Shown here piece by piece: positions 8,224 through 50,514 of a stretch of DNA of 64,000 bases (the first letter of the stretch is position 1; each line of letters starts with the position of its first letter). The position numbers and the translations under genes are program-made. Under the pieces are notes generated by a model. It worked only from the letters and a program-made list of their open reading frames with translations. It made no database searches and had not been told where the DNA came from. Source of the DNA: Candidatus Poseidoniales archaeon (GTDB lineage: Archaea; Thermoplasmatota; Poseidoniia; Poseidoniales; Poseidoniaceae). Where the stretch lies: assembly GCA_003602645.1 (NCBI GenBank), contig QQSI01000040.1, positions 4,152 through 68,151 on the forward strand. Direction: 5' to 3'.

Positions 8224-8454
8224 GTGGCTCTGCGAGTCAACTGGGACCGCACTCCTGTGTCTGTGCATCACGACAGCAAAGAAGTTCTTGAGTTGCTGAT
8301 TCTGCACCTAAGAAACAAACATGGTCTTCGCAAGCGCTCCATCGTGATGGAGGATCGTGAAGAAGGCCCTGGCCACCTGTTTTTTTTGTATCAACCGTGT
8401 GATCCACGGTGGATCGCTGAATTCGATATCACAAAATTTTCTGAGGAGGAATGA
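8224..8454 (+). CDS. Hypothetical small protein with a GTG start, coupled to the downstream methyltransferase
   Basis: A 76-aa ORF fills the gap between S17e and the SPOUT methyltransferase. Its stop overlaps the methyltransferase ATG (ATGA). It has no recognisable domain and could be a non-coding leader instead. Confidence 0.25.
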   Translation: MALRVNWDRTPVSVHHDSKEVLELLILHLRNKHGLRKRSIVMEDREEGPGHLFFLYQPCDPRWIAEFDITKFSEEE

Positions 8455-9296
8455 AGAAAATGGGTGACCGGAGCACACTTCCGTTGCCTCAATCCACCTA
8501 CGGCCTTGAAATTGTATTGATTGGCGTTTCTCATCCCGGCAACCTTGGTGCCGTTTGCCGGAGCATGTTGAATTATGGATTTGCTAACTTGAGGCTGGTC
8601 AATCCCAAATGTGAACCGGATCATATCGAGGCAAGAAACCGGGCCAAACATGCAGGGCGTATCCTCGACCAGTGCGCTGTGTACGATTCTCTTGATGCAG
8701 CAACAGAAGATGCCTCGATGATCATTGGCACGTCTGGAAAACGAGAAATTGGTTCGAAAACAAATTTTAGGCACTTCGTCTATCCATGGGAACTTTCAGA
8801 ACGCTTGGAAGGTTTTACCGGCAAAGTCTGTCTTGTATTCGGTGAAGAAGGAAAGGGGATGTCCACGGAAGACTTGGCGAAATGCGACTATCTTGTCACC
8901 CTCCCTACCTGGGAAGGCTACCCAATTGCCAACCTCTCTCACGCCGTGAATGCGTGTGTTTACGAATTACATCGGAACCGAGTAATTGCTCGACAAGGCA
9001 AGGAACAAGGGTTGCCCGACGTGGTCCCCCTTGAACGGTCGCTCAATCCTGAGTTGAAACAAATCCTTCATCAAACAGTTCGCGAATTAGCGAATGCCCT
9101 TCCCGGAAACGATGAGCGACGTCAGAGTTTTGGACAATCCCTTACGCGTTCAATCATGCGTTCTATGCCAACGCAAGGGGAGGCGACGAGAATGATTGGT
9201 GGTCTTCTTGATGCGACCACTGCAATCCAATACGTCGAGGGCAACGAGGAGTGGCGCAGCCAACGAAGGCGTAAAATCAGTCCTGAGGAAGAATGA
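8451..9296 (+). CDS. SPOUT (SpoU/TrmJ-like) RNA 2'-O-methyltransferase with a C-terminal extension
   Basis: GVSHPGNLGAVCRSMLNYGFANLRLVNP, IGTSGKRE, LVFGEEGKGMSTEDLAKCDYLVTLPT and ANLSHAVNACVYEL are TrmJ/TrmH-type SPOUT motifs. A C-terminal extension of about 100 aa follows. Confidence 0.75.
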   Translation: MKKMGDRSTLPLPQSTYGLEIVLIGVSHPGNLGAVCRSMLNYGFANLRLVNPKCEPDHIEARNRAKHAGRILDQCAVYDSLDAATEDASMIIGTSGKREIGSKTNFRHFVYPWELSERLEGFTGKVCLVFGEEGKGMSTEDLAKCDYLVTLPTWEGYPIANLSHAVNACVYELHRNRVIARQGKEQGLPDVVPLERSLNPELKQILHQTVRELANALPGNDERRQSFGQSLTRSIMRSMPTQGEATRMIGGLLDATTAIQYVEGNEEWRSQRRRKISPEEE

Positions 9297-9302
9297 GTCC
9301 AT

Positions 9303-9752
9303 TCAACCGTGCCAAGAAGCAACGCTCTTTGGCGTTTCCCGAACGTGCATGGCGACCAAACGTAACCTGTTTCCATAGGCTGATTTGATGTGTGGCTCAA
9401 CTTGCTCGAAAGCCCACTTTGCGAGATTTTCTGCAGTCGGAACAAATGGTACCACGACTGTTCTGTGATCTGAGTCCATCATTTCGAGGGCTGCACGGGC
9501 TTGTTGATCGTGCTCGTACACCACAAAGGCATGGTCCACCACATCATGGACATAAACAGTAAGAATTTCACTCACATCTGAGAAATCCATCAACATCCCC
9601 TCTTCTGAGACACCATGTTCTTGAACAACATCGCCTTCAATTTCTGCTTCAAAGCGGTAGCGATGGCCGTGCATGTGGCGGCATTTGCTCTTGTGGTTTG
9701 GCACTCGGTGGCCAGTGTCAGTCTCAATGTATCTTCGTATTCGTGTGGTCAT
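9303..9752 (-). CDS. queD: 6-carboxy-5,6,7,8-tetrahydropterin synthase QueD (PTPS family)
   Basis: The CRHMHGHRY zinc/catalytic motif and the PTPS fold pattern are present. The gene sits within the preQ0 operon. Confidence 0.85.
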   Translation of the reverse strand: MTTRIRRYIETDTGHRVPNHKSKCRHMHGHRYRFEAEIEGDVVQEHGVSEEGMLMDFSDVSEILTVYVHDVVDHAFVVYEHDQQARAALEMMDSDHRTVVVPFVPTAENLAKWAFEQVEPHIKSAYGNRLRLVAMHVRETPKSVASWHG

Positions 9753-10903
9753 TGTTCCAACTCCTCAAACTCTAACGAGGCTGAATTGATACAGTATCTC
9801 ATTCCGCCGTGTTCTCTTGGTCCATCGTTGAAAATATGTCCAAGATGTGCGTCGCATTGAGAACATCGAACTTCTGTTCGAATCATGCCATGCGTGCGAT
9901 CTTCAATCTGATGAATGGACGCCCTTGCATGCTCACTATGGAAGGATGGCCATCCGCAACCTGAATCAAATTTCATGGCTGATGTGAACAGGTGATGACC
10001 GCAACAAATGCAATTGTAGTTTCCACTTCTTTTCTCATTCCAATACGCGCCTGTAAACGCCCTTTCAGTGCCACTTTCTCTCGTGACATGGTATTGCAAT
10101 TGAGTTAATTTTTCCTTGTAGTATGCATCTTTGTGCTTTTGTTCTGTTTCTAAAGCAGCAGCCAAAACAATCTCCCACGGTTCAATGTATTCAATTGGAT
10201 CCACCAAATCAAGTGCGTTAAAGGCAAGAATTCGCTCCACGTCAGAACCGCTTCGCCCTGAACTTCTGCCATCCTGATCGGGGTTGTACGATGTGATGGT
10301 GTTTTCAAAAACTCGGTCGAAATTTAAACCAATTTTGTCACATGAAGCCAAAGCGTCTTTCAAAATGGTCACTTTATCGCCGTCGATGTATGGTAAGTGG
10401 AAGGATACGGTATGGCTGTCCCAGTTTCCAACTGCAAAAGCGTGTTCAAGGGCATGATAAAATTCTGGACGGCAATCGGGGTAGATGGCATGATCGCCTG
10501 AATGCACTCCTAAGGCAATTTCGACATTCGCCTTTTCTCGCTTGGCCACTGAAAGGGCGTATCCGTAGAGAATTGATGCAAAAATAGCGTTTCTATTTGG
10601 AACGACAGTGGATTTCATTTGTTCTTCTTCGTAGTGGCCTTCAGGAACCTTGATGCCTTCATTGATCAAGGACGATTCGAACAAGGTCATCGCTGAAGTT
10701 AAATCGACAATGTGGTGTTCAACGTAGAATCCTTTGTCCTGCAAGTATGCAATGTTGTTTGATGCTCTGGTCAACTCAACGCTGTGCTTTTGGCCGTAAT
10801 TATAGGAAATACAGCTTACATTTTTCCCCTCAGCCAAGGCGTTCAAGAGCAAAGAAGTAGAGTCCATCCCACCTGAAAGTGCCATGACAGTATGCTCAGC
10901 CAT
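9749..10903 (-). CDS. queC: Fusion protein: 7-cyano-7-deazaguanine synthase QueC (N-terminal) fused to methionine-R-sulfoxide reductase MsrB (C-terminal)
   Basis: The N-terminal part has the PP-loop ALSGGMDST and the VPNRNAIFASILYGYALS and YPDCRPEF motifs of QueC. The C-terminal roughly 130 aa carry TERAFTGAYWNEK, NCICCGHHLF, KFDSGCGWPSF and RCSQCDAHLGHIF, which make up the SelR/MsrB domain with both CxxC pairs. The ATG is at 10903. Confidence 0.8.
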   Translation of the reverse strand: MAEHTVMALSGGMDSTSLLLNALAEGKNVSCISYNYGQKHSVELTRASNNIAYLQDKGFYVEHHIVDLTSAMTLFESSLINEGIKVPEGHYEEEQMKSTVVPNRNAIFASILYGYALSVAKREKANVEIALGVHSGDHAIYPDCRPEFYHALEHAFAVGNWDSHTVSFHLPYIDGDKVTILKDALASCDKIGLNFDRVFENTITSYNPDQDGRSSGRSGSDVERILAFNALDLVDPIEYIEPWEIVLAAALETEQKHKDAYYKEKLTQLQYHVTRESGTERAFTGAYWNEKRSGNYNCICCGHHLFTSAMKFDSGCGWPSFHSEHARASIHQIEDRTHGMIRTEVRCSQCDAHLGHIFNDGPREHGGMRYCINSASLEFEELEQ

Positions 10904-11565
10904 CAATCAACACCCATCCATTTGTGTGTTTGGAGGCTTAGGCGCCATTGTGGATTTTCTTTGACCATTGCTTCTGTTTCAGCGAAATTTTTTCCGTTCC
11001 ACTCTACAGATTCTAATTCCATGTAACACGGTTGGAGGAAATGGTGTTTGAACCCTTGTCGCAATTCTTCGTACATCGATAGATCTTGACCTATATACAC
11101 ACACTTCAATTCGTCACCTGTACGTTGACGCAATTTCACTTCTGGATACATTTGATCTTTAGGTGACACACATATCCAATCCAAGAGTCCATCAGGGATT
11201 TCAATGGTTCCATTTGTTTCAACAGATAATGAGTACCCCCTTGCCTTGAGCAAACGATGCAACGGCCAAAGGTTCTGTAACATGGGTTCTCCACCAGTGA
11301 AGATGATTCGCTTACAATCAAACTTTGATAGTTCCCCAAGCAAGTCAATCGCATTCATAGTATTGAATGTTAGAAAATCTGTGTCGCACCATTCGCAACG
11401 GAGGTTACAATTTCCAAAACGAACGAAAACATGAGGAATCCCTGCGTGGTAACCTTCACCTTGAACTGAATGAAACACTTCGACGATTGGATACTCTGCA
11501 GCCAAATCGGTTGGATCATCAACGGGCGTGTCACCGGCACGAACACAGGAGTCGTTAACGGTCAT
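10903..11565 (-). CDS. queE: 7-carboxy-7-deazaguanine synthase QueE (radical SAM)
   Basis: FHSVQGEGYHAGIPHVFVRFGNCNLRCEWCDT matches the QueE signature, including the CxxxCxxC-like cluster arrangement. Confidence 0.85.
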   Translation of the reverse strand: MTVNDSCVRAGDTPVDDPTDLAAEYPIVEVFHSVQGEGYHAGIPHVFVRFGNCNLRCEWCDTDFLTFNTMNAIDLLGELSKFDCKRIIFTGGEPMLQNLWPLHRLLKARGYSLSVETNGTIEIPDGLLDWICVSPKDQMYPEVKLRQRTGDELKCVYIGQDLSMYEELRQGFKHHFLQPCYMELESVEWNGKNFAETEAMVKENPQWRLSLQTHKWMGVD

Positions 11566-11574
11566 ATTCTCACC

Positions 11575-12144
11575 TCAAAGTGGACGTGAATGAATCAATT
11601 GCATGAGTTCTTGCCTTGCTTCTGGTCGTTCAAAAAACACCCCTCGCATGGCCGATGTGGTCATGATTGAATTTTGCTTTTTGACCCCTCTGCATCGCAT
11701 ACATCCATGCTTCGCTTCAATAATGACGGCAGCACCCAACGGTGCTAGATGAGATTCTAAATCATCAGCAACGCCCTTCGTGATACGTTCCTGATTTTGC
11801 AAGCGTTGAGCATGGAGGTCCACAATCCGTGCTAATTTACTGATCCCCACAATCCGCTCAACTGGGATGTACGCAACGTGAGCACGCCCAGTGAATGGCT
11901 GCAGGTGATGCTCACAAGTGGAATGAAATTCAATATCCCTCAGAAGAACAATTCCATCGTAACCCTCTCCATTGAAGGTTGAATCAAGAAGTTCAGCGGC
12001 ATCCATTTGGTAACCACCAAAAATTTCATCCCATGAATCAATCACGCGTTTTGGTGTTTTTGCTAGCCCTTCACGATTTGGTTCAGGTTCAAGGTAGCCA
12101 AGGAGGGTATGCACTGCCTGTTCTGCTTCGTCTCGTGTCACCAT
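11575..12144 (-). CDS. folE: GTP cyclohydrolase I (FolE type)
   Basis: LAKTPKRV, FHSTCEHHLQPF and VAYIP..RIVGISKLARIV are FolE active-site motifs. The ATG is at 12144. Confidence 0.85.
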   Translation of the reverse strand: MVTRDEAEQAVHTLLGYLEPEPNREGLAKTPKRVIDSWDEIFGGYQMDAAELLDSTFNGEGYDGIVLLRDIEFHSTCEHHLQPFTGRAHVAYIPVERIVGISKLARIVDLHAQRLQNQERITKGVADDLESHLAPLGAAVIIEAKHGCMRCRGVKKQNSIMTTSAMRGVFFERPEARQELMQLIHSRPL

Positions 12145-12146
12145 CG

Positions 12147-12341
12147 TCAATCGCCTCCACGCCCATGCCTTGCGTCAATCTCATCCAGTTGGTCTAGCAA
12201 TTTTCTGCACGCCGTTCGAACTGCATCGGCAAGACTGACAAATTTGTGCTCGTCTCCGACATGCTTACGGAGATCTTCAACGAGCTCAGCAGGCATGTCC
12301 AGGGAGATTTTGGGCATAGTTAACGCACCCGATGGTCCCAT
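12147..12341 (-). CDS. Ribbon-helix-helix (CopG-like) small DNA-binding protein
   Basis: MPKISLDMPAELVEDLRKHV gives a beta-strand followed by a helix, typical of RHH. The stop lies 2 nt before the folE ATG. The start may be the internal Met at 12317. Confidence 0.55.
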   Translation of the reverse strand: MGPSGALTMPKISLDMPAELVEDLRKHVGDEHKFVSLADAVRTACRKLLDQLDEIDARHGRGGD

Positions 12342-23718: not shown

Positions 23719-25605
23719 TCACTCCACGAACATGTCTTCCTGGTAGCCCGTGATGATATCCCCTGTACCATCTTCCTCGATTGTCACGGTTTCGTCTTCG
23801 TCATCGAACTCTATGATTGTTCCAAAGACCTCCTCGTCCTCAAGTGTAAGACCGATGTGTGAGCCAATATCGATTTCTCCTTCCCCTTCATCATCCTCAT
23901 CTTCCTCAGGTTCATCTGACTCGTCATGAGATTCATCATCCAACTCTTCATCTTCGAAATCCTCTTCGAGAGCCTCTTCCATTTCTTCTTCGAGGTCCCC
24001 ATCATCATCATTATCTTCAGATTCGGACGAAGCATCTGCTTGATCGTCTTGGACTTCCTTCATTGCCTTAGCGCGTGCACGCCAGCTAGGCATGAGCGCT
24101 AGATGCATGTAAAGTGAACCAGCTAATCCTGCTGCGCCAAGTACCATAAACAAAATACCGTCCCAATAGAAACCAGCAGGCATCGAACTTGCTTCACCAC
24201 TTAGGGGCGTTAACGAGTTCTTACAGTCGCCTTCCTGAATTGCTGGATCACAAGGGTAAGAATCACCTTCGGCAAGACCCGCAGGAGGGAGTAAATTGCC
24301 TTTGGTCTCTAGCTCAATTGGGCCGCCAGTTCCATCGACAATGACACCGAATCCATTCACGACCCACACGGCAATGAAAAGGCCAAATGCTAAGTGAATC
24401 AACGGCCATACATATTCGTTCCATTGCTTCCCCATCATGCGCTTTTGCATATCAGTTGGGAAGGGTTTGGTTGGTTTGCTGATGACAGCTCTTTCATCCG
24501 TTGCTTCATCGGCATCTGCCAAATTTTCTAAAGCTGTGATGAATTCTATCATGTCCACCGTTCGATCGTTGTCATCATCAACTTCAGACAGGAATTCTTC
24601 GATATCCTTGTGACCGATTTCATCATCAAAGAGCTTGTTCAATTCGTTCATTAGTTCGACAACATCGACGCGCCCATTGGCATCTCTGTCAATGCTCTTG
24701 AAGAATTGAGCTGGCGAGGTTTCCATTTCATCCATGGCATCAGCGATTTTGCGAATGAGCGAAACCTCCTCGATGCTTTCTTCTTCTGAAGGATCTTCAT
24801 CGGACGCCTCATCTTCGTCCATTGATTCTTCGCCGTTTTCCTCTTCTGAATCCAATGTTTCCTCTTCGACCACCTCTTCGTGTTCTGATTCAGAATCTTC
24901 AGATTCGTCATCATCCTGGGAATCTTGGATTTCCTCTTCATCAAGGTTTGATTCTGTTTGAACTTCTTCGTCAGGTTCGCCTTCATCCTCTGTTTCAATT
25001 TCCTCTTCTGGATCATCATCCACTTGGATTTCGGGATCGGTTTCCACCTCATCGTCTGAGTCATTGTCTTCTTCGTTTTCCGAATCTTCTTCCATTGCAT
25101 CCTCATCTTCAGAGGTTGTTGAATGATCCATTTTTTCGTCTTCTGGCAAGTCATCTCCGGTGATGGTTTTATGCAACTCAGCAAGGTCAATCCTTCCATC
25201 TCCGTCAGCATCGATTGTCTCAATGAGGCGCTCAACTTGAGATGGTGGCAAATCTGCTAGATTGAGGCTCAACAGTCCTGACTTCAATTCACTTGAGTCG
25301 ATTTGACCATCGCCATCCTTGTCAAATTTATTGAACAGCATCGGAATTGTAATCCCTGTTGTTGCCAACCAATTGCGCAGCACATCAACGACGTCGTCGG
25401 CGATAAAAACTGTACCACAGTGGCTACATTTTGTGGAATCTAAAGGCACGAGGCCACCGCATGCACCGCACTCTCCGAGGGCTTCATCGGATACACCGGA
25501 AAAAGAAATATTACATTCAGGACATTTGGTTGAATCGAGGGGAATTACTGCTCTGCAAGCACCACATTCTCCTGTAGCAACTTCTTCAGTCTTGTCTTCG
25601 GACAT
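23719..25605 (-). CDS. Membrane protein with N-terminal double zinc ribbons, four EF-hand calcium-binding loops and long poly-acidic tracts
   Basis: Two CGAC..(11)..CxxC ribbons are present. Four canonical 12-residue EF loops occur in two pairs: DKDGDGQIDSSE and DADGDGRIDLAE, then DRDANGRVDVVE and DDDNDRTVDMIE. A tract of about 150 aa is almost entirely D/E. Two TM helices flank an exposed loop containing Cys. A second acidic tail follows. The ATG is at 25605. Confidence 0.7.
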   Translation of the reverse strand: MSEDKTEEVATGECGACRAVIPLDSTKCPECNISFSGVSDEALGECGACGGLVPLDSTKCSHCGTVFIADDVVDVLRNWLATTGITIPMLFNKFDKDGDGQIDSSELKSGLLSLNLADLPPSQVERLIETIDADGDGRIDLAELHKTITGDDLPEDEKMDHSTTSEDEDAMEEDSENEEDNDSDDEVETDPEIQVDDDPEEEIETEDEGEPDEEVQTESNLDEEEIQDSQDDDESEDSESEHEEVVEEETLDSEEENGEESMDEDEASDEDPSEEESIEEVSLIRKIADAMDEMETSPAQFFKSIDRDANGRVDVVELMNELNKLFDDEIGHKDIEEFLSEVDDDNDRTVDMIEFITALENLADADEATDERAVISKPTKPFPTDMQKRMMGKQWNEYVWPLIHLAFGLFIAVWVVNGFGVIVDGTGGPIELETKGNLLPPAGLAEGDSYPCDPAIQEGDCKNSLTPLSGEASSMPAGFYWDGILFMVLGAAGLAGSLYMHLALMPSWRARAKAMKEVQDDQADASSESEDNDDDGDLEEEMEEALEEDFEDEELDDESHDESDEPEEDEDDEGEGEIDIGSHIGLTLEDEEVFGTIIEFDDEDETVTIEEDGTGDIITGYQEDMFVE

Positions 25606-25676
25606 GGGCACACCTAATCCACCGACTACAACAACGGATATAATGATTCATAGTCTTTCAACGGTTACCCATACCA

Positions 25677-47289: not shown

Positions 47290-48177
47290 TCAGGACTCAT
47301 CGGAGCCAATAAATTGCATGTCTCCGGGCTTGAACGCTGGATCAATGAGTCCGATTTCTTGGCCTTCTGTGATAAATTGCCGGATGGAAGCGCGTCCTTC
47401 TTTCTTGTAATCGATGGTGCGGTCATTGACGTACATGCTCACAAATTCCTTATTGGTGTCATCATCAATGCCTCTGCCCCACTTTTTGGCAAATTCAAGT
47501 GCTTCAGCAGGTGATTTCAGAGCATACTCAATGCTCATTTTGGTGTACTTAGTGATGTCTTCCATTGCTTGTGCTCCAAGATCTCGACGGACGACATTGC
47601 CTCCAAGCGGCATAGGCCAACCGCCGGTTCGTTCGTTCCACCAAACACCAAGATCAATATGCACGTGAAGGTCGTGATCAACATAGGTCAGTTGGCCTTC
47701 GTGAATGATGAGACCACTCAAGTAGGTTCCATCGAGGATGCGTGGGATGATTTCATCGAAGGGAACAACGGCAACTTCGCAGTCACCCCATGCCAGACGC
47801 AGCCCCATGTAGGCACTTGTTTTGAGGCCAGGGACGGCGATGATGTTGCTTCGGACATCTGATTCGCTTGCGCCCTGCATTGAAACAACCATTGGACCAT
47901 ACCCCTCACCCATCGAGGCACCACAATTCATCAAAGCATAATTCTCGGAAATTTCTGGGAATGCGTGGATGGAGACTGCTGAAACTTCAAGGTCGCAATT
48001 CATTGCGCGGTGGTTGAGTGTTTCGATGTCTTGCAGTTCGTGTACGAAGTGGTAGCCAGGAGTTGGAAAGGCACCAGTGGTCATTGCGTGGAACATAAAG
48101 GCGTCATCTGGGTCCGGAGAGTGTCCGATTCGAACAATTTTGTTGCCGTCTTCATCAAGGGGTAATTGAGCCACCAT
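47290..48177 (-). CDS. mqnD: 1,4-dihydroxy-6-naphthoate synthase MqnD (futalosine pathway)
   Basis: VRIGHSPDPDDAFMFHAM, AVPGLKTSAYMGLRLA, LIIHEGQLTY and WWNERTGGWPMPLGGNVVRRDLG match the MqnD family closely. The ATG at 48177 is preferred over the TTG at 48210. Confidence 0.8.
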   Translation of the reverse strand: MVAQLPLDEDGNKIVRIGHSPDPDDAFMFHAMTTGAFPTPGYHFVHELQDIETLNHRAMNCDLEVSAVSIHAFPEISENYALMNCGASMGEGYGPMVVSMQGASESDVRSNIIAVPGLKTSAYMGLRLAWGDCEVAVVPFDEIIPRILDGTYLSGLIIHEGQLTYVDHDLHVHIDLGVWWNERTGGWPMPLGGNVVRRDLGAQAMEDITKYTKMSIEYALKSPAEALEFAKKWGRGIDDDTNKEFVSMYVNDRTIDYKKEGRASIRQFITEGQEIGLIDPAFKPGDMQFIGSDES

Positions 48178-48345
48178 GATGCCTCGACTGGCGCGCCCTT
48201 GATGAACCAACCGCTAATTTTTCCTGATTTCTTCTTTTCCTGCATTGGTGATGCATTCACCGATTTGTTTTCAGTGTTGATTGATTCATCTGGGTCCAAG
48301 GGGAGTCGTGGTTTGGGCGTCAAGGCAACTGGTTGCATTGCATTT

Positions 48346-50514
48346 ATGCTGTTGGTGATGCTCTCCACGCCAGTGGCCTCGAGCGCGTCAACCATTTCGT
48401 TCACAGGCACCACGACCGTTGAAACCACCGACGGATCCTCGGCCTTAGCTATTGATTCGGACATGAACTACCTCGCAAGCGGTTACGATGACCACATGGC
48501 CATCATGTGGTTGGATAATCTATCGCTGATTGATATCATTGAAGTGGATCGACCCGTGGAATCACTGGAGTTTTCACCGGATGGCTCTCTCTTGGCTATT
48601 GCCATATCAGGGTCGGAAACAAAGGAGGACACCATTCAATTATTTGATGTCGAATCCATGACTCTGAGCCAAAAGCAACAATCGGCTAACGCTCGCCCAG
48701 TGGACATTGCCTGGTCGCCAGATGGGTTGCTACTTGCGGTTCCAAACGCGAATAATGGTATTGATTTAATCCGTATTTCTGATATGGAAATAGAGCGGAG
48801 TTTGACTGGCGAACACAATACAGACGTGACTTGTATTGGATTCACAAGCAACGGTGGGCATGTTATCAGCGGTGATGAATCGGGGCGAATGGTGATGTGG
48901 AACGTCGATGGTACTCCGACAGCAAAAAAATGGGAGTTTGGAAATGAACTCAAAACATGTTCTTTTGACCCAACCGACACACGCATCGCATCGCTTACGG
49001 TCGACGGTGCATTGAACACGCTTTCTTTTTCCGGTGGTGATTTACAAAGCGCTCAATTTACCTCAGGAGGTGGCTTGAGTTGGTCGTATGAAGGGACCTA
49101 CATACATTTGACAGAAAATGGCGATGCTCCACGATTGCTGACATTGGATGCCTCCACATTTGAACAAGTGGAATCGACCTACATGGCTCACCAAGTGTTG
49201 GATATTGCCACGATCGAAAATCAATACGGTTTGGTTCAAGAATTCTATGCAGCAACCAACACCCTCCATTTGGCGAGGTATGGTAGCCATGCTGTCCCCG
49301 AAGGAATGGGGGTTGCTGGAGCAGACCTCGATGGTGATGGCATACCGGATTCACTCGACGATGATGATGACGGTGATGCGATCTTTGATCAATGGGATAC
49401 GTATTGCGGTGAGGTTGAAACAGATTGTGCACGCTCCCCCCATGAAGACCACATTCGTTCGGTTTCGATTCAATTGAACGCCACACATATGACGATTAAT
49501 GACAGGATCAAATTGGACATCGTCCTATCCTCTTCAATCAGAAATATGTCGAGAATTTCTATTATTGAGGATGCTCAGCTCAGTGGGAGCGAAACCGAAT
49601 TGTTTGCCCAATCCGTTTGTGCTAACCATGATGAGAGCAGAATCCTTGAACAATGGAAAGATACACTGATGCTTTCAGAAGGCCAATTGGAAGGTGGAAT
49701 AGTAACCTGTGCCGTCAGCGAAGGCATGACGCTCAGAGCACAAAATGATTTCAAAACTCACATCGGTGTTGAATACACGATTTCGTTCAACCTTTCCTCT
49801 GCACCGATTTTCCCGTTCACAGTTGCATTCGAAGAGCAACCTATCGCCACTGATGCCTCATTATCCCATCTTGCAGAAATGCATCCTATTCATGTGACGC
49901 TTTCTGCAAAGGGAGCGAATGATGTCGAATTGTCTCCATGGTGGACCACAGAATCTCCTTTGGAACTCACTTTGGAGGAACGCGTGGTCAAAGAACCAAC
50001 CTTGACACAGAAAGGAGTGGATTTATTCGCGAATTATCCAATTCTTTTTGTCTTCGTTCTTGCCTTCCTTGCTGGAGGCATCGTGCTCGTATTGAGGACA
50101 AAAAACACAATGGGTATGGATCTCAACATCTTTGACGAAGAGGATGATGAGCCGAGTCGCGATGAAGACGAGGATGAATCAAGCACCTCAATCGAAGAGG
50201 AAGCTTCACTTGAAGTCCCTCTTGCCGAGCCGGAACAAGCAAAACCCGTCGAATCAAAAACGAATGTAAGGGACACAACGACCGACCATCCAGTTCAGAC
50301 CAAAAAACGCAGGAAAGTGAGCCAACGCACCTCCAGAGAGGGCCCGATTACAACAGTGAAGAGAAAGCGCTTGGATGGTGGAGAAGAACCTCCTGTTCAG
50401 AAAAGAGCAACCAGCAAAAAGCGAATTGTCAAACCCAACACGTCGACAAAGCGGAAGACAAGAAGGGTCGTAACTCAATCCGACAAAGAAGAAGACACTT
50501 CACCAGGCGAATGA
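48346..50514 (+). CDS. Membrane-anchored extracellular WD40/beta-propeller protein with an Asp-rich calcium-binding-like loop and a basic cytoplasmic tail
   Basis: The signal peptide is MLLVMLSTPVASSAS. WD-like blades are present (LEFSPDGSLLAIA, IAWSPDGLLLAV, CIGFTSNGGHVISGDESGRMVMWNV). A DLDGDGIPDSLDDDDDGD loop follows. A C-terminal TM helix (ILFVFVLAFLAGGIVLVL) leads into a K/R-rich tail. The ATG is at 48346. Confidence 0.65.
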   Translation: MLLVMLSTPVASSASTISFTGTTTVETTDGSSALAIDSDMNYLASGYDDHMAIMWLDNLSLIDIIEVDRPVESLEFSPDGSLLAIAISGSETKEDTIQLFDVESMTLSQKQQSANARPVDIAWSPDGLLLAVPNANNGIDLIRISDMEIERSLTGEHNTDVTCIGFTSNGGHVISGDESGRMVMWNVDGTPTAKKWEFGNELKTCSFDPTDTRIASLTVDGALNTLSFSGGDLQSAQFTSGGGLSWSYEGTYIHLTENGDAPRLLTLDASTFEQVESTYMAHQVLDIATIENQYGLVQEFYAATNTLHLARYGSHAVPEGMGVAGADLDGDGIPDSLDDDDDGDAIFDQWDTYCGEVETDCARSPHEDHIRSVSIQLNATHMTINDRIKLDIVLSSSIRNMSRISIIEDAQLSGSETELFAQSVCANHDESRILEQWKDTLMLSEGQLEGGIVTCAVSEGMTLRAQNDFKTHIGVEYTISFNLSSAPIFPFTVAFEEQPIATDASLSHLAEMHPIHVTLSAKGANDVELSPWWTTESPLELTLEERVVKEPTLTQKGVDLFANYPILFVFVLAFLAGGIVLVLRTKNTMGMDLNIFDEEDDEPSRDEDEDESSTSIEEEASLEVPLAEPEQAKPVESKTNVRDTTTDHPVQTKKRRKVSQRTSREGPITTVKRKRLDGGEEPPVQKRATSKKRIVKPNTSTKRKTRRVVTQSDKEEDTSPGE

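Follow-up and report, generated by a model that had tools for sequence, protein, structure and literature searches.

A fused queC::msrB gene in a preQ0 operon

The DNA analysed here, which we call the window, is a 64,000-nucleotide stretch of contig QQSI01000040.1 from a Candidatus Poseidoniales archaeon. Its minus strand carries a tightly packed operon in the order small 64-amino-acid (aa) open reading frame (ORF), folE, queE, queC::msrB, queD, which encodes a complete pathway from GTP to preQ0 (7-cyano-7-deazaguanine). Our subject is the third enzyme gene, queC::msrB, in which the preQ0 synthase QueC and the methionine-sulfoxide reductase MsrB are joined in one protein. An earlier note, made from the sequence alone, had reported this fusion and had suspected that the zinc-binding cysteines of the QueC half were replaced. 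Both points held. The fusion is genuine and conserved: Pfam recognises both domains, and the fusion recurs in over 120 homologues and some 30 Poseidoniales genomes. Alignment to Bacillus subtilis QueC and to collinear Cys-bearing relatives shows that all four zinc ligands are replaced. The gene and its parts are as follows.

9749..10903, minus strand: queC::msrB coding sequence (ORF, Pfam, homologue lengths)
10214..10891, minus strand: QueC PP-loop ATPase domain, residues ~5-230 (PF06508, E value 3.1e-42; Foldseek template modelling (TM) score 0.77 to 3BL5; motifs as in PMC13329287)
10220..10294, minus strand: former zinc-knuckle loop, residues 204-228, TSYNPDQDGRSSGRSGSDVERILAF (alignments)
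10109..10213, minus strand: QueC C-terminal extension and linker, residues ~231-265, with a long predicted helix at 243-265 (AlphaFold2 model, junction comparison)
9764..10108, minus strand: MsrB/SelR domain, residues ~266-380 (PF01641, E value 1.5e-50; TIGR00357; 52% identity and TM 0.88 to 3CEZ)

The gene is a single uninterrupted ORF of 384 aa plus stop. The earlier note had placed it correctly, but its length of 385 aa included the stop codon. A mechanical ORF start at TTG 10906 likewise gives 385 aa; one codon further on, ATG 10903 shares bases with the queE stop (TGATG) and yields 384 aa, as in most homologues. At the other end, the stop codon (9749-9751) overlaps the start of queD. The domain boundary, which had been put near 10250, lies instead at about 10105-10210, and position 10250 falls inside the former zinc loop.

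Numbered on the 385-aa ORF that starts at TTG, the Pfam match to QueC (PF06508) spans residues 6-231, with 144.9 bits against a gathering score of 22, and the match to SelR/MsrB (PF01641) spans residues 267-381. These were the only two domains in the Pfam scan of the fusion protein, and the N-terminal class-II glutamine amidotransferase domain of Gat-QueC was not found. A sequence search of the PDB matched bacterial and human MsrB at 50-55% identity and gave clear hits to the QueC structures 2PG3 and 3BL5. The AlphaFold2 model of the fusion protein has a mean predicted local distance difference test (pLDDT) value of 82.6 and a predicted TM score (pTM) of 0.77. When this model was searched with Foldseek, it gave a TM score of 0.88 with a root-mean-square deviation of 1.9 Å to the MsrB structure 3CEZ and a TM score of 0.77 to the B. 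subtilis QueC structure 3BL5.

The MsrB half is complete, as had been claimed, and scores 178.5 bits with NCBIfam TIGR00357, above the equivalog cutoff of 113.05. Both zinc CxxC pairs are present (C298/C301 and C347/C350), together with the resolving C316 in GCGWPSF and the catalytic C371 in RYCINS, and these Cys residues do not vary in an alignment of the window protein with 38 homologues (39 sequences). The substrate-site residues H353 and H356 (HLGH) and W318 (GWPSF) are invariant in the same alignment. The domain resembles the MsrB proteins of Escherichia coli (6SYM) and Burkholderia pseudomallei (3CEZ) and human MSRB3 in identity (50-55%), in fold (TM 0.8-0.88), in the Zn(Cys)4 site and in the Cys residues of RYCINS and GCGWPSF; it differs from a stand-alone MsrB in being the C-terminal domain of a QueC fusion inside a preQ0 operon. 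To judge from this intact active site, the C-terminal half is most likely an ordinary zinc-containing, two-cysteine methionine-R-sulfoxide reductase recycled by thioredoxin.

Kept motifs and lost zinc ligands in the QueC half

A family study from 2026 (PMC13329287) gives the canonical QueC signature as SGGxDS, YxQxHxxE, VPxRN, YPDC and an essential Tyr just after the first Cys. In that study the motifs were defined experimentally and the Cys zinc motif is called the family hallmark, and canonical QueCs that lack the cysteines go unmentioned. The QueC half of the window protein keeps SGGMDS (residues 10-15), YGQKHSVE (36-43), VPNRN (101-105), YPDC (141-144) and Y206, all of which are invariant in the aligned homologues. 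The Met of SGGMDS was considered as a peculiarity linked to MsrB and was ruled out, because the same loop is found in Cys-bearing QueCs of Alteromonas and Idiomarina. The marks of the defence-type proteins QatC and Cap9 are absent: YxQxHxxE, VPxRN and YPDC are canonical, and the neighbours are folE, queE and queD, with no Qat genes or genes of a cyclic oligonucleotide-based antiphage signalling system (CBASS).

In the HMMER alignment, NTLTCYN of B. subtilis QueC (3BL5) pairs with NTITSYN of the window protein. The QueC domain was used as query in an exhaustive search of 1.84 billion cluster representatives, and the best 150 were aligned. In this alignment the closest relatives that keep the Cys residues (47-55% identity) have the sequence TCYNPDxxGRSCGKCGSCxER..AF, which is collinear, free of indels, with TSYNPDQDGRSSGRSGSDVERILAF. 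The C(x)8CxxCxxC zinc motif is absent from the window QueC, in which the four ligand positions are occupied by S205 (TCG, 10289-10291), S215 (TCA, 10259-10261), S218 (AGC, 10250-10252) and D221 (GAC, 10241-10243). Among 120 fused homologues, the first ligand position is always Ser, the third is Ser or rarely Thr, the fourth is always Asp and the second is mostly Ser; across the wider set of Poseidoniales and Pirellulaceae loci, the second position varies (S, H, D, N, A).

The window QueC thus shares with canonical QueC the PP-loop Rossmann fold, the motifs named above with the essential Tyr, and an operon with folE, queD and queE, whereas it has S, S, S and D in place of the C(x)nCxxCxxC zinc knuckle, about 30 extra residues at the C-terminus and the fusion to MsrB. 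The C-terminal extra segment is also found in the nearest Cys-bearing relatives. In the AlphaFold2 model, the former zinc loop has pLDDT values of 76-81, and a helix (residues 219-230) begins right after S218. This arrangement suggests that a Ser/Thr-x-x-Asp helix N-capping box (S218-x-x-D221) probably replaces the staple once formed by CxxC and zinc.

Two further patterns were seen among QueC relatives. A few (P0234, P0250, P0257 and P0269) read C-C-C-D, with Asp as the fourth ligand, and may represent an intermediate toward the Cys-less state. Many metagenomic relatives carry inteins (P0123, P0124, P0138, P0143, P0144, P0250 and P0256); in P0144 and P0256 an insertion, judged from the alignment alone and without a Pfam scan, lies inside the Cys knuckle.

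The zinc ligands were lost independently of the fusion, and their loss is found far more widely. A scan of one genome per GTDB species yielded 80 loci, whose six-frame ORFs we searched with the proteins of the window operon. In these loci every Poseidoniales QueC is Cys-less, whether msrB is fused, split or absent. Cys-less QueC also occurs in more than 15 genomes of marine Pirellulaceae/Planctomycetota (L045-L062), at 55-59% identity to the archaeal QueC; there it stands alone in a bacterial chromosomal context, for example beside RlmKL and a WYL regulator, and not beside other que genes. This likeness points to horizontal exchange of the gene among marine archaea, bacteria and viruses. Among the 80 IMG/VR viral contigs closest to the window QueC, a sample biased toward relatives of the Cys-less query, 76 have a Cys-less QueC; many of the 80 carry FolE, QueD and QueE, and none carries MsrB. 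This distribution bears directly on a proposal of the earlier note, namely that the Cys-less QueC obtains a replacement structural zinc site from MsrB. The co-occurrence of the two in one protein is all that speaks for it, whereas Cys-less QueC is found without MsrB in Poseidoniales, in Marine Group III (MGIII), in Pirellulaceae and in viruses, and the split forms carry the same loop. Because the Cys-less state occurs regardless of the state of msrB, the idea is refuted, and we give it next to no credence.

In a neighbour-joining tree of QueC representatives (computed in numpy, 200 bootstraps), the Cys-less sequences formed one clade in 0 of 200 bootstraps, and the backbone lacks the resolution needed to state the number of zinc-ligand losses. 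As to the cause, simple zinc sparing was considered and is weakened as an explanation, because the folE of the operon is zinc-dependent and the fused MsrB keeps its Zn(Cys)4 site. Oxidation resistance of the structural site in sunlit water would be a plausible cause.

The only cultured Cys-less example that we found is Flavobacterium phage vB_FspM_immuto (immuto_2-6A), with the loop TSYKP...SDYKSASSVER. All G in the DNA of this phage is replaced by fdPreQ1, a base derived from preQ0 (PMC10516641). The phage QueC is 44% identical to that of the window, likewise lacks all four Cys, and is encoded with FolE, QueD and QueE; it differs in its S/D/S/S loop (SDYKSASSVER), often with insertions, in serving DNA modification instead of tRNA modification, and in having no MsrB. 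QueF acts on the nitrile preQ0, so the phage provides indirect support for preQ0 synthesis by a Cys-less QueC.

This observation is of value in weighing whether the Cys-less QueC has changed or lost its activity, for example by stopping at the amide ADG or by serving only as a scaffold while another enzyme makes preQ0. Such a view could draw on the status of the zinc motif as family hallmark (PMC13329287), on the finding that replacement of four Cys by Ala abolishes the function of QatC (PMC13639016), and on the NCBIfam TIGR00364 score of the QueC half, 137.7 bits, which falls below the equivalog cutoff of 150.3 because of the loss of the zinc site. However, all experimentally essential catalytic motifs are retained, conservation of the former loop is strong (S205, S/T218 and D221 hardly vary), every Poseidoniales locus has the protein at the queC position of a complete operon, and the phage needs nitrile preQ0 for QueF to make its fdPreQ1 DNA. 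A changed or lost activity is, in our judgement, improbable.

Fused, split and absent msrB across Poseidoniales

The remaining genes of the operon are listed below, from queD to the operon head.

9303..9752, minus strand: queD, 6-carboxytetrahydropterin synthase (PF01242, E value 6e-26)
10903..11565, minus strand: queE, radical S-adenosylmethionine (SAM) 7-carboxy-7-deazaguanine synthase, directly upstream of queC::msrB (Pfam/NCBIfam)
11575..12150, minus strand: folE, GTP cyclohydrolase I of the zinc-dependent type IA, first enzyme of the pathway (PF01227, E value 7e-67; TIGR00063, above cutoff)
12147..12341, minus strand: small conserved 64-aa ORF at the operon head (phmmer, E values 1e-21 to 1e-32 across loci)

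The association with folE, queE and queD is kept in every Poseidoniales locus whose sequence extends far enough to include the flanks. The earlier note had proposed a comparison of fused and separate genes in relatives, and the genome scan brought to light three states of msrB.

Fused, ~30 Poseidoniales loci: queC::msrB in one ORF
Split, 11 loci: queC and msrB adjacent and separate
No msrB, ~10 loci, including one MGIII genome in which queD is not adjacent: queC followed directly by queD

Counting fused and split forms together, msrB occupies the place between queC and queD in about 40 of some 50 Poseidoniales loci whose sequence extends to the end of queC. In the split loci the start of msrB overlaps the stop of queC (ATGA or TAATG), and in several of them (at least five) GGAGG precedes the msrB start. 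Given these start overlaps and, in several loci, the GGAGG, the split msrB genes are real, translationally coupled genes and not sequencing errors.

These data, together with the database record, answer the concern that an assembly join, a frameshift or a sequencing error had created a false fusion. The split versions in related genomes could be taken as a hint of such an artefact, but they have start codons and ribosome-binding sites of their own and form supported clades. More than 120 protein clusters at 66-93% identity share the identical two-domain architecture; they come from five sources (JGI, ENA, NCBI, Tara and Logan) and hold up to 276 member sequences per cluster. In the window, there is no stop or frameshift between the domains. 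An artefact is almost certainly not the explanation.

Two classes of fusion junction were observed, with a 49-residue spacer, as in the window, or a 35-residue spacer that is 14 residues shorter; the longer one retains the QueC tail and the whole N-terminal helix of MsrB. The history of the three states was approached with a neighbour-joining tree of concatenated FolE, QueE, QueC, QueD and SpoU (1017 columns, 200 bootstraps). Each msrB state occurs in terminal clades with support of up to 100%, and one split clade is nested among fusions with the long linker. Transitions between the fused, split and absent states happened several times; because the backbone lacks resolution, the tree gives neither their number nor their direction.

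Database names assign the more than 120 fused homologues to Candidatus Poseidoniaceae or Thalassarchaeaceae, which belong to Marine Group II (Poseidoniales). Among the 50%-identity representatives of the QueC neighbourhood, MsrB was found only in the Poseidoniales cluster. Long QueC relatives were considered as further QueC-MsrB fusions, and those checked hold inteins, an HNH domain or no second Pfam domain. One contig labelled as a Phycisphaerae bacterium (L016, NZFX01000056.1) holds the entire archaeal operon, fused gene and SpoU neighbour included, and was probably mis-binned from Marine Group II into a bacterial metagenome-assembled genome.

The frequency of msrB at this site leads to a further alternative, which takes up the other idea of the earlier note, a coupling of Met-sulfoxide repair to preQ0 synthesis. 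Here MsrB would specifically protect the preQ0 pathway by repairing oxidised Met of QueC and/or of the radical-SAM enzyme QueE in cis, in a sunlit and oxidising habitat, and its fusion to QueC could be read as a Rosetta-stone signal that the two interact physically. The informative loci with msrB between queC and queD come from both Poseidoniales families, two different junctions were formed, the invariant Met residues of QueC include M7, M13 within the SGGMDS of the PP-loop and M96 directly ahead of VPxRN, and the pTM of 0.77 was obtained for a two-domain chain, all of which is consistent with such a role. On the other hand, several Poseidoniales clades have the operon without msrB, the Alteromonas and Idiomarina QueCs with SGGMDS have no msrB nearby, and neither do the viruses and Pirellulaceae with the same type of QueC. 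It also counts against this role that MsrB is a general repair enzyme and that operon hitch-hiking is common in streamlined genomes. Specific coupling of this kind seems to us unlikely, though worth keeping in mind.

The genes around the fusion add some context. The 64-aa ORF lies upstream of folE in nearly all Poseidoniales loci; by eye it looks like a ribbon-helix-helix protein and may be an operon regulator, a candidate function that found no support in Pfam or the PDB, where the ORF has no match. In nearly all Poseidoniales loci, queD faces a convergent gene for a SpoU-family RNA 2'-O-methyltransferase (8451-9296, plus strand, in the window), and two functions in RNA modification are thereby kept side by side. 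Elsewhere the window is ordinary archaeal chromosome, with Kae1, histidine-utilisation genes, the PAN ATPase, MetRS, ProRS, genes of the futalosine pathway and transketolase; within the window there is no tgt, and no msr gene other than the fused msrB. It also encodes a 630-aa protein with EF-hand calcium-binding motifs (23719-25611, minus strand) and a 782-aa WD40 beta-propeller protein (48166-50514, plus strand).

Likely origin and meaning of the fusion and of the Cys-less QueC

Since related genomes have separate, coupled genes or no msrB, the fusion joined two operon neighbours. Taken together, the sequence comparisons make it likely that queC::msrB encodes a bifunctional protein, consisting of an active, zinc-free preQ0 synthase and an ordinary MsrB, and that the fusion mainly fixes their co-expression. 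The N-terminal half would be the preQ0 synthase of the organism for archaeosine, canonical in every catalytic motif, and would belong to a zinc-free lineage in which the Cys4 knuckle became S, a variable residue, S or T, and D. The ancestral order was presumably small ORF, folE, queE, queC, msrB, queD, with queC and msrB as translationally coupled neighbours; loss of the stop/start overlap would have fused them and yielded the linker types of 49 or 35 residues. The fusion would fix the co-expression and stoichiometry of two enzymes that act independently, probably with no new chemistry.

Several observations weigh against this explanation. The occurrence of msrB inside the operon in most informative loci hints at more than accidental co-expression, and the pTM of 0.77 may reflect a fixed interface between the domains. 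The QueC half scores below its equivalog cutoff. In the case of the phage, the host QueC could contribute preQ0, and the phage loop is the variant S/D/S/S and not the S/S/S/D of the window.

A broader scenario combines the two features of the protein into an oxidation-hardened archaeosine pathway, in which the ocean-wide zinc-free QueC is adaptive and MsrB was recruited as a protector in cis. The zinc-free QueC would be shared, probably by horizontal transfer, among Poseidoniales, marine Pirellulaceae and a large share of the marine viruses that modify their DNA with deazaguanines. Its spread would rid the enzyme of a Cys4 site that demands zinc and is sensitive to oxidation, in surface water that is sunlit and poor in zinc, and the same selection would have drawn MsrB into the operon and later into the polypeptide. 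We regard this scenario as rather doubtful, and the fusion of independently acting operon neighbours remains our preferred explanation.

Known systems offer partial parallels. Gat-QueC, found in Crenarchaeota and phage 9g, is also a QueC-family domain fused to a second enzyme in deazaguanine metabolism; however, its glutamine amidotransferase partner supplies nitrogen for archaeosine, so that the link is mechanistic, whereas none is evident between MsrB and preQ0 synthesis. MsrB is likewise a module of multi-domain proteins in MsrA-MsrB and in the thioredoxin (Trx) fusion Trx-MsrA-MsrB (PilB), but the partners there all belong to one repair pathway, and the partner in the window protein is an enzyme of nucleobase biosynthesis. 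FolE2 (GTP cyclohydrolase IB) is a precedent for escape from zinc dependence in preQ0 and folate biosynthesis; it is a non-orthologous replacement of a catalytic zinc enzyme, whereas the window QueC merely loses a structural zinc site.

Our literature searches found no description of a QueC-MsrB fusion, of a zinc-independent canonical QueC or of Msr genes in Marine Group II. The fused proteins are already in public databases, named "7-cyano-7-deazaguanine synthase" at JGI and only "MsrB" at NCBI, the latter because of the sub-cutoff TIGR00364 score. Automated annotation may therefore miss QueC, and the preQ0/archaeosine pathway can look incomplete in reconstructions of Marine Group II.

The fusion itself is of modest interest, although an operon in which msrB may be fused, split or absent offers a natural experiment for distinguishing fusion as functional coupling from mere co-expression. 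The zinc-free QueC lineage, common to marine archaea, marine bacteria and many ocean viruses, is more interesting. That an otherwise canonical QueC lacking the Cys4 site occurs in abundant surface-ocean archaea, among marine planctomycetes and in most of its nearest relatives from viruses suggests that preQ0 synthesis can do without the zinc site, and the Cys-less QueC provides a natural template for zinc-free variants of the enzyme.

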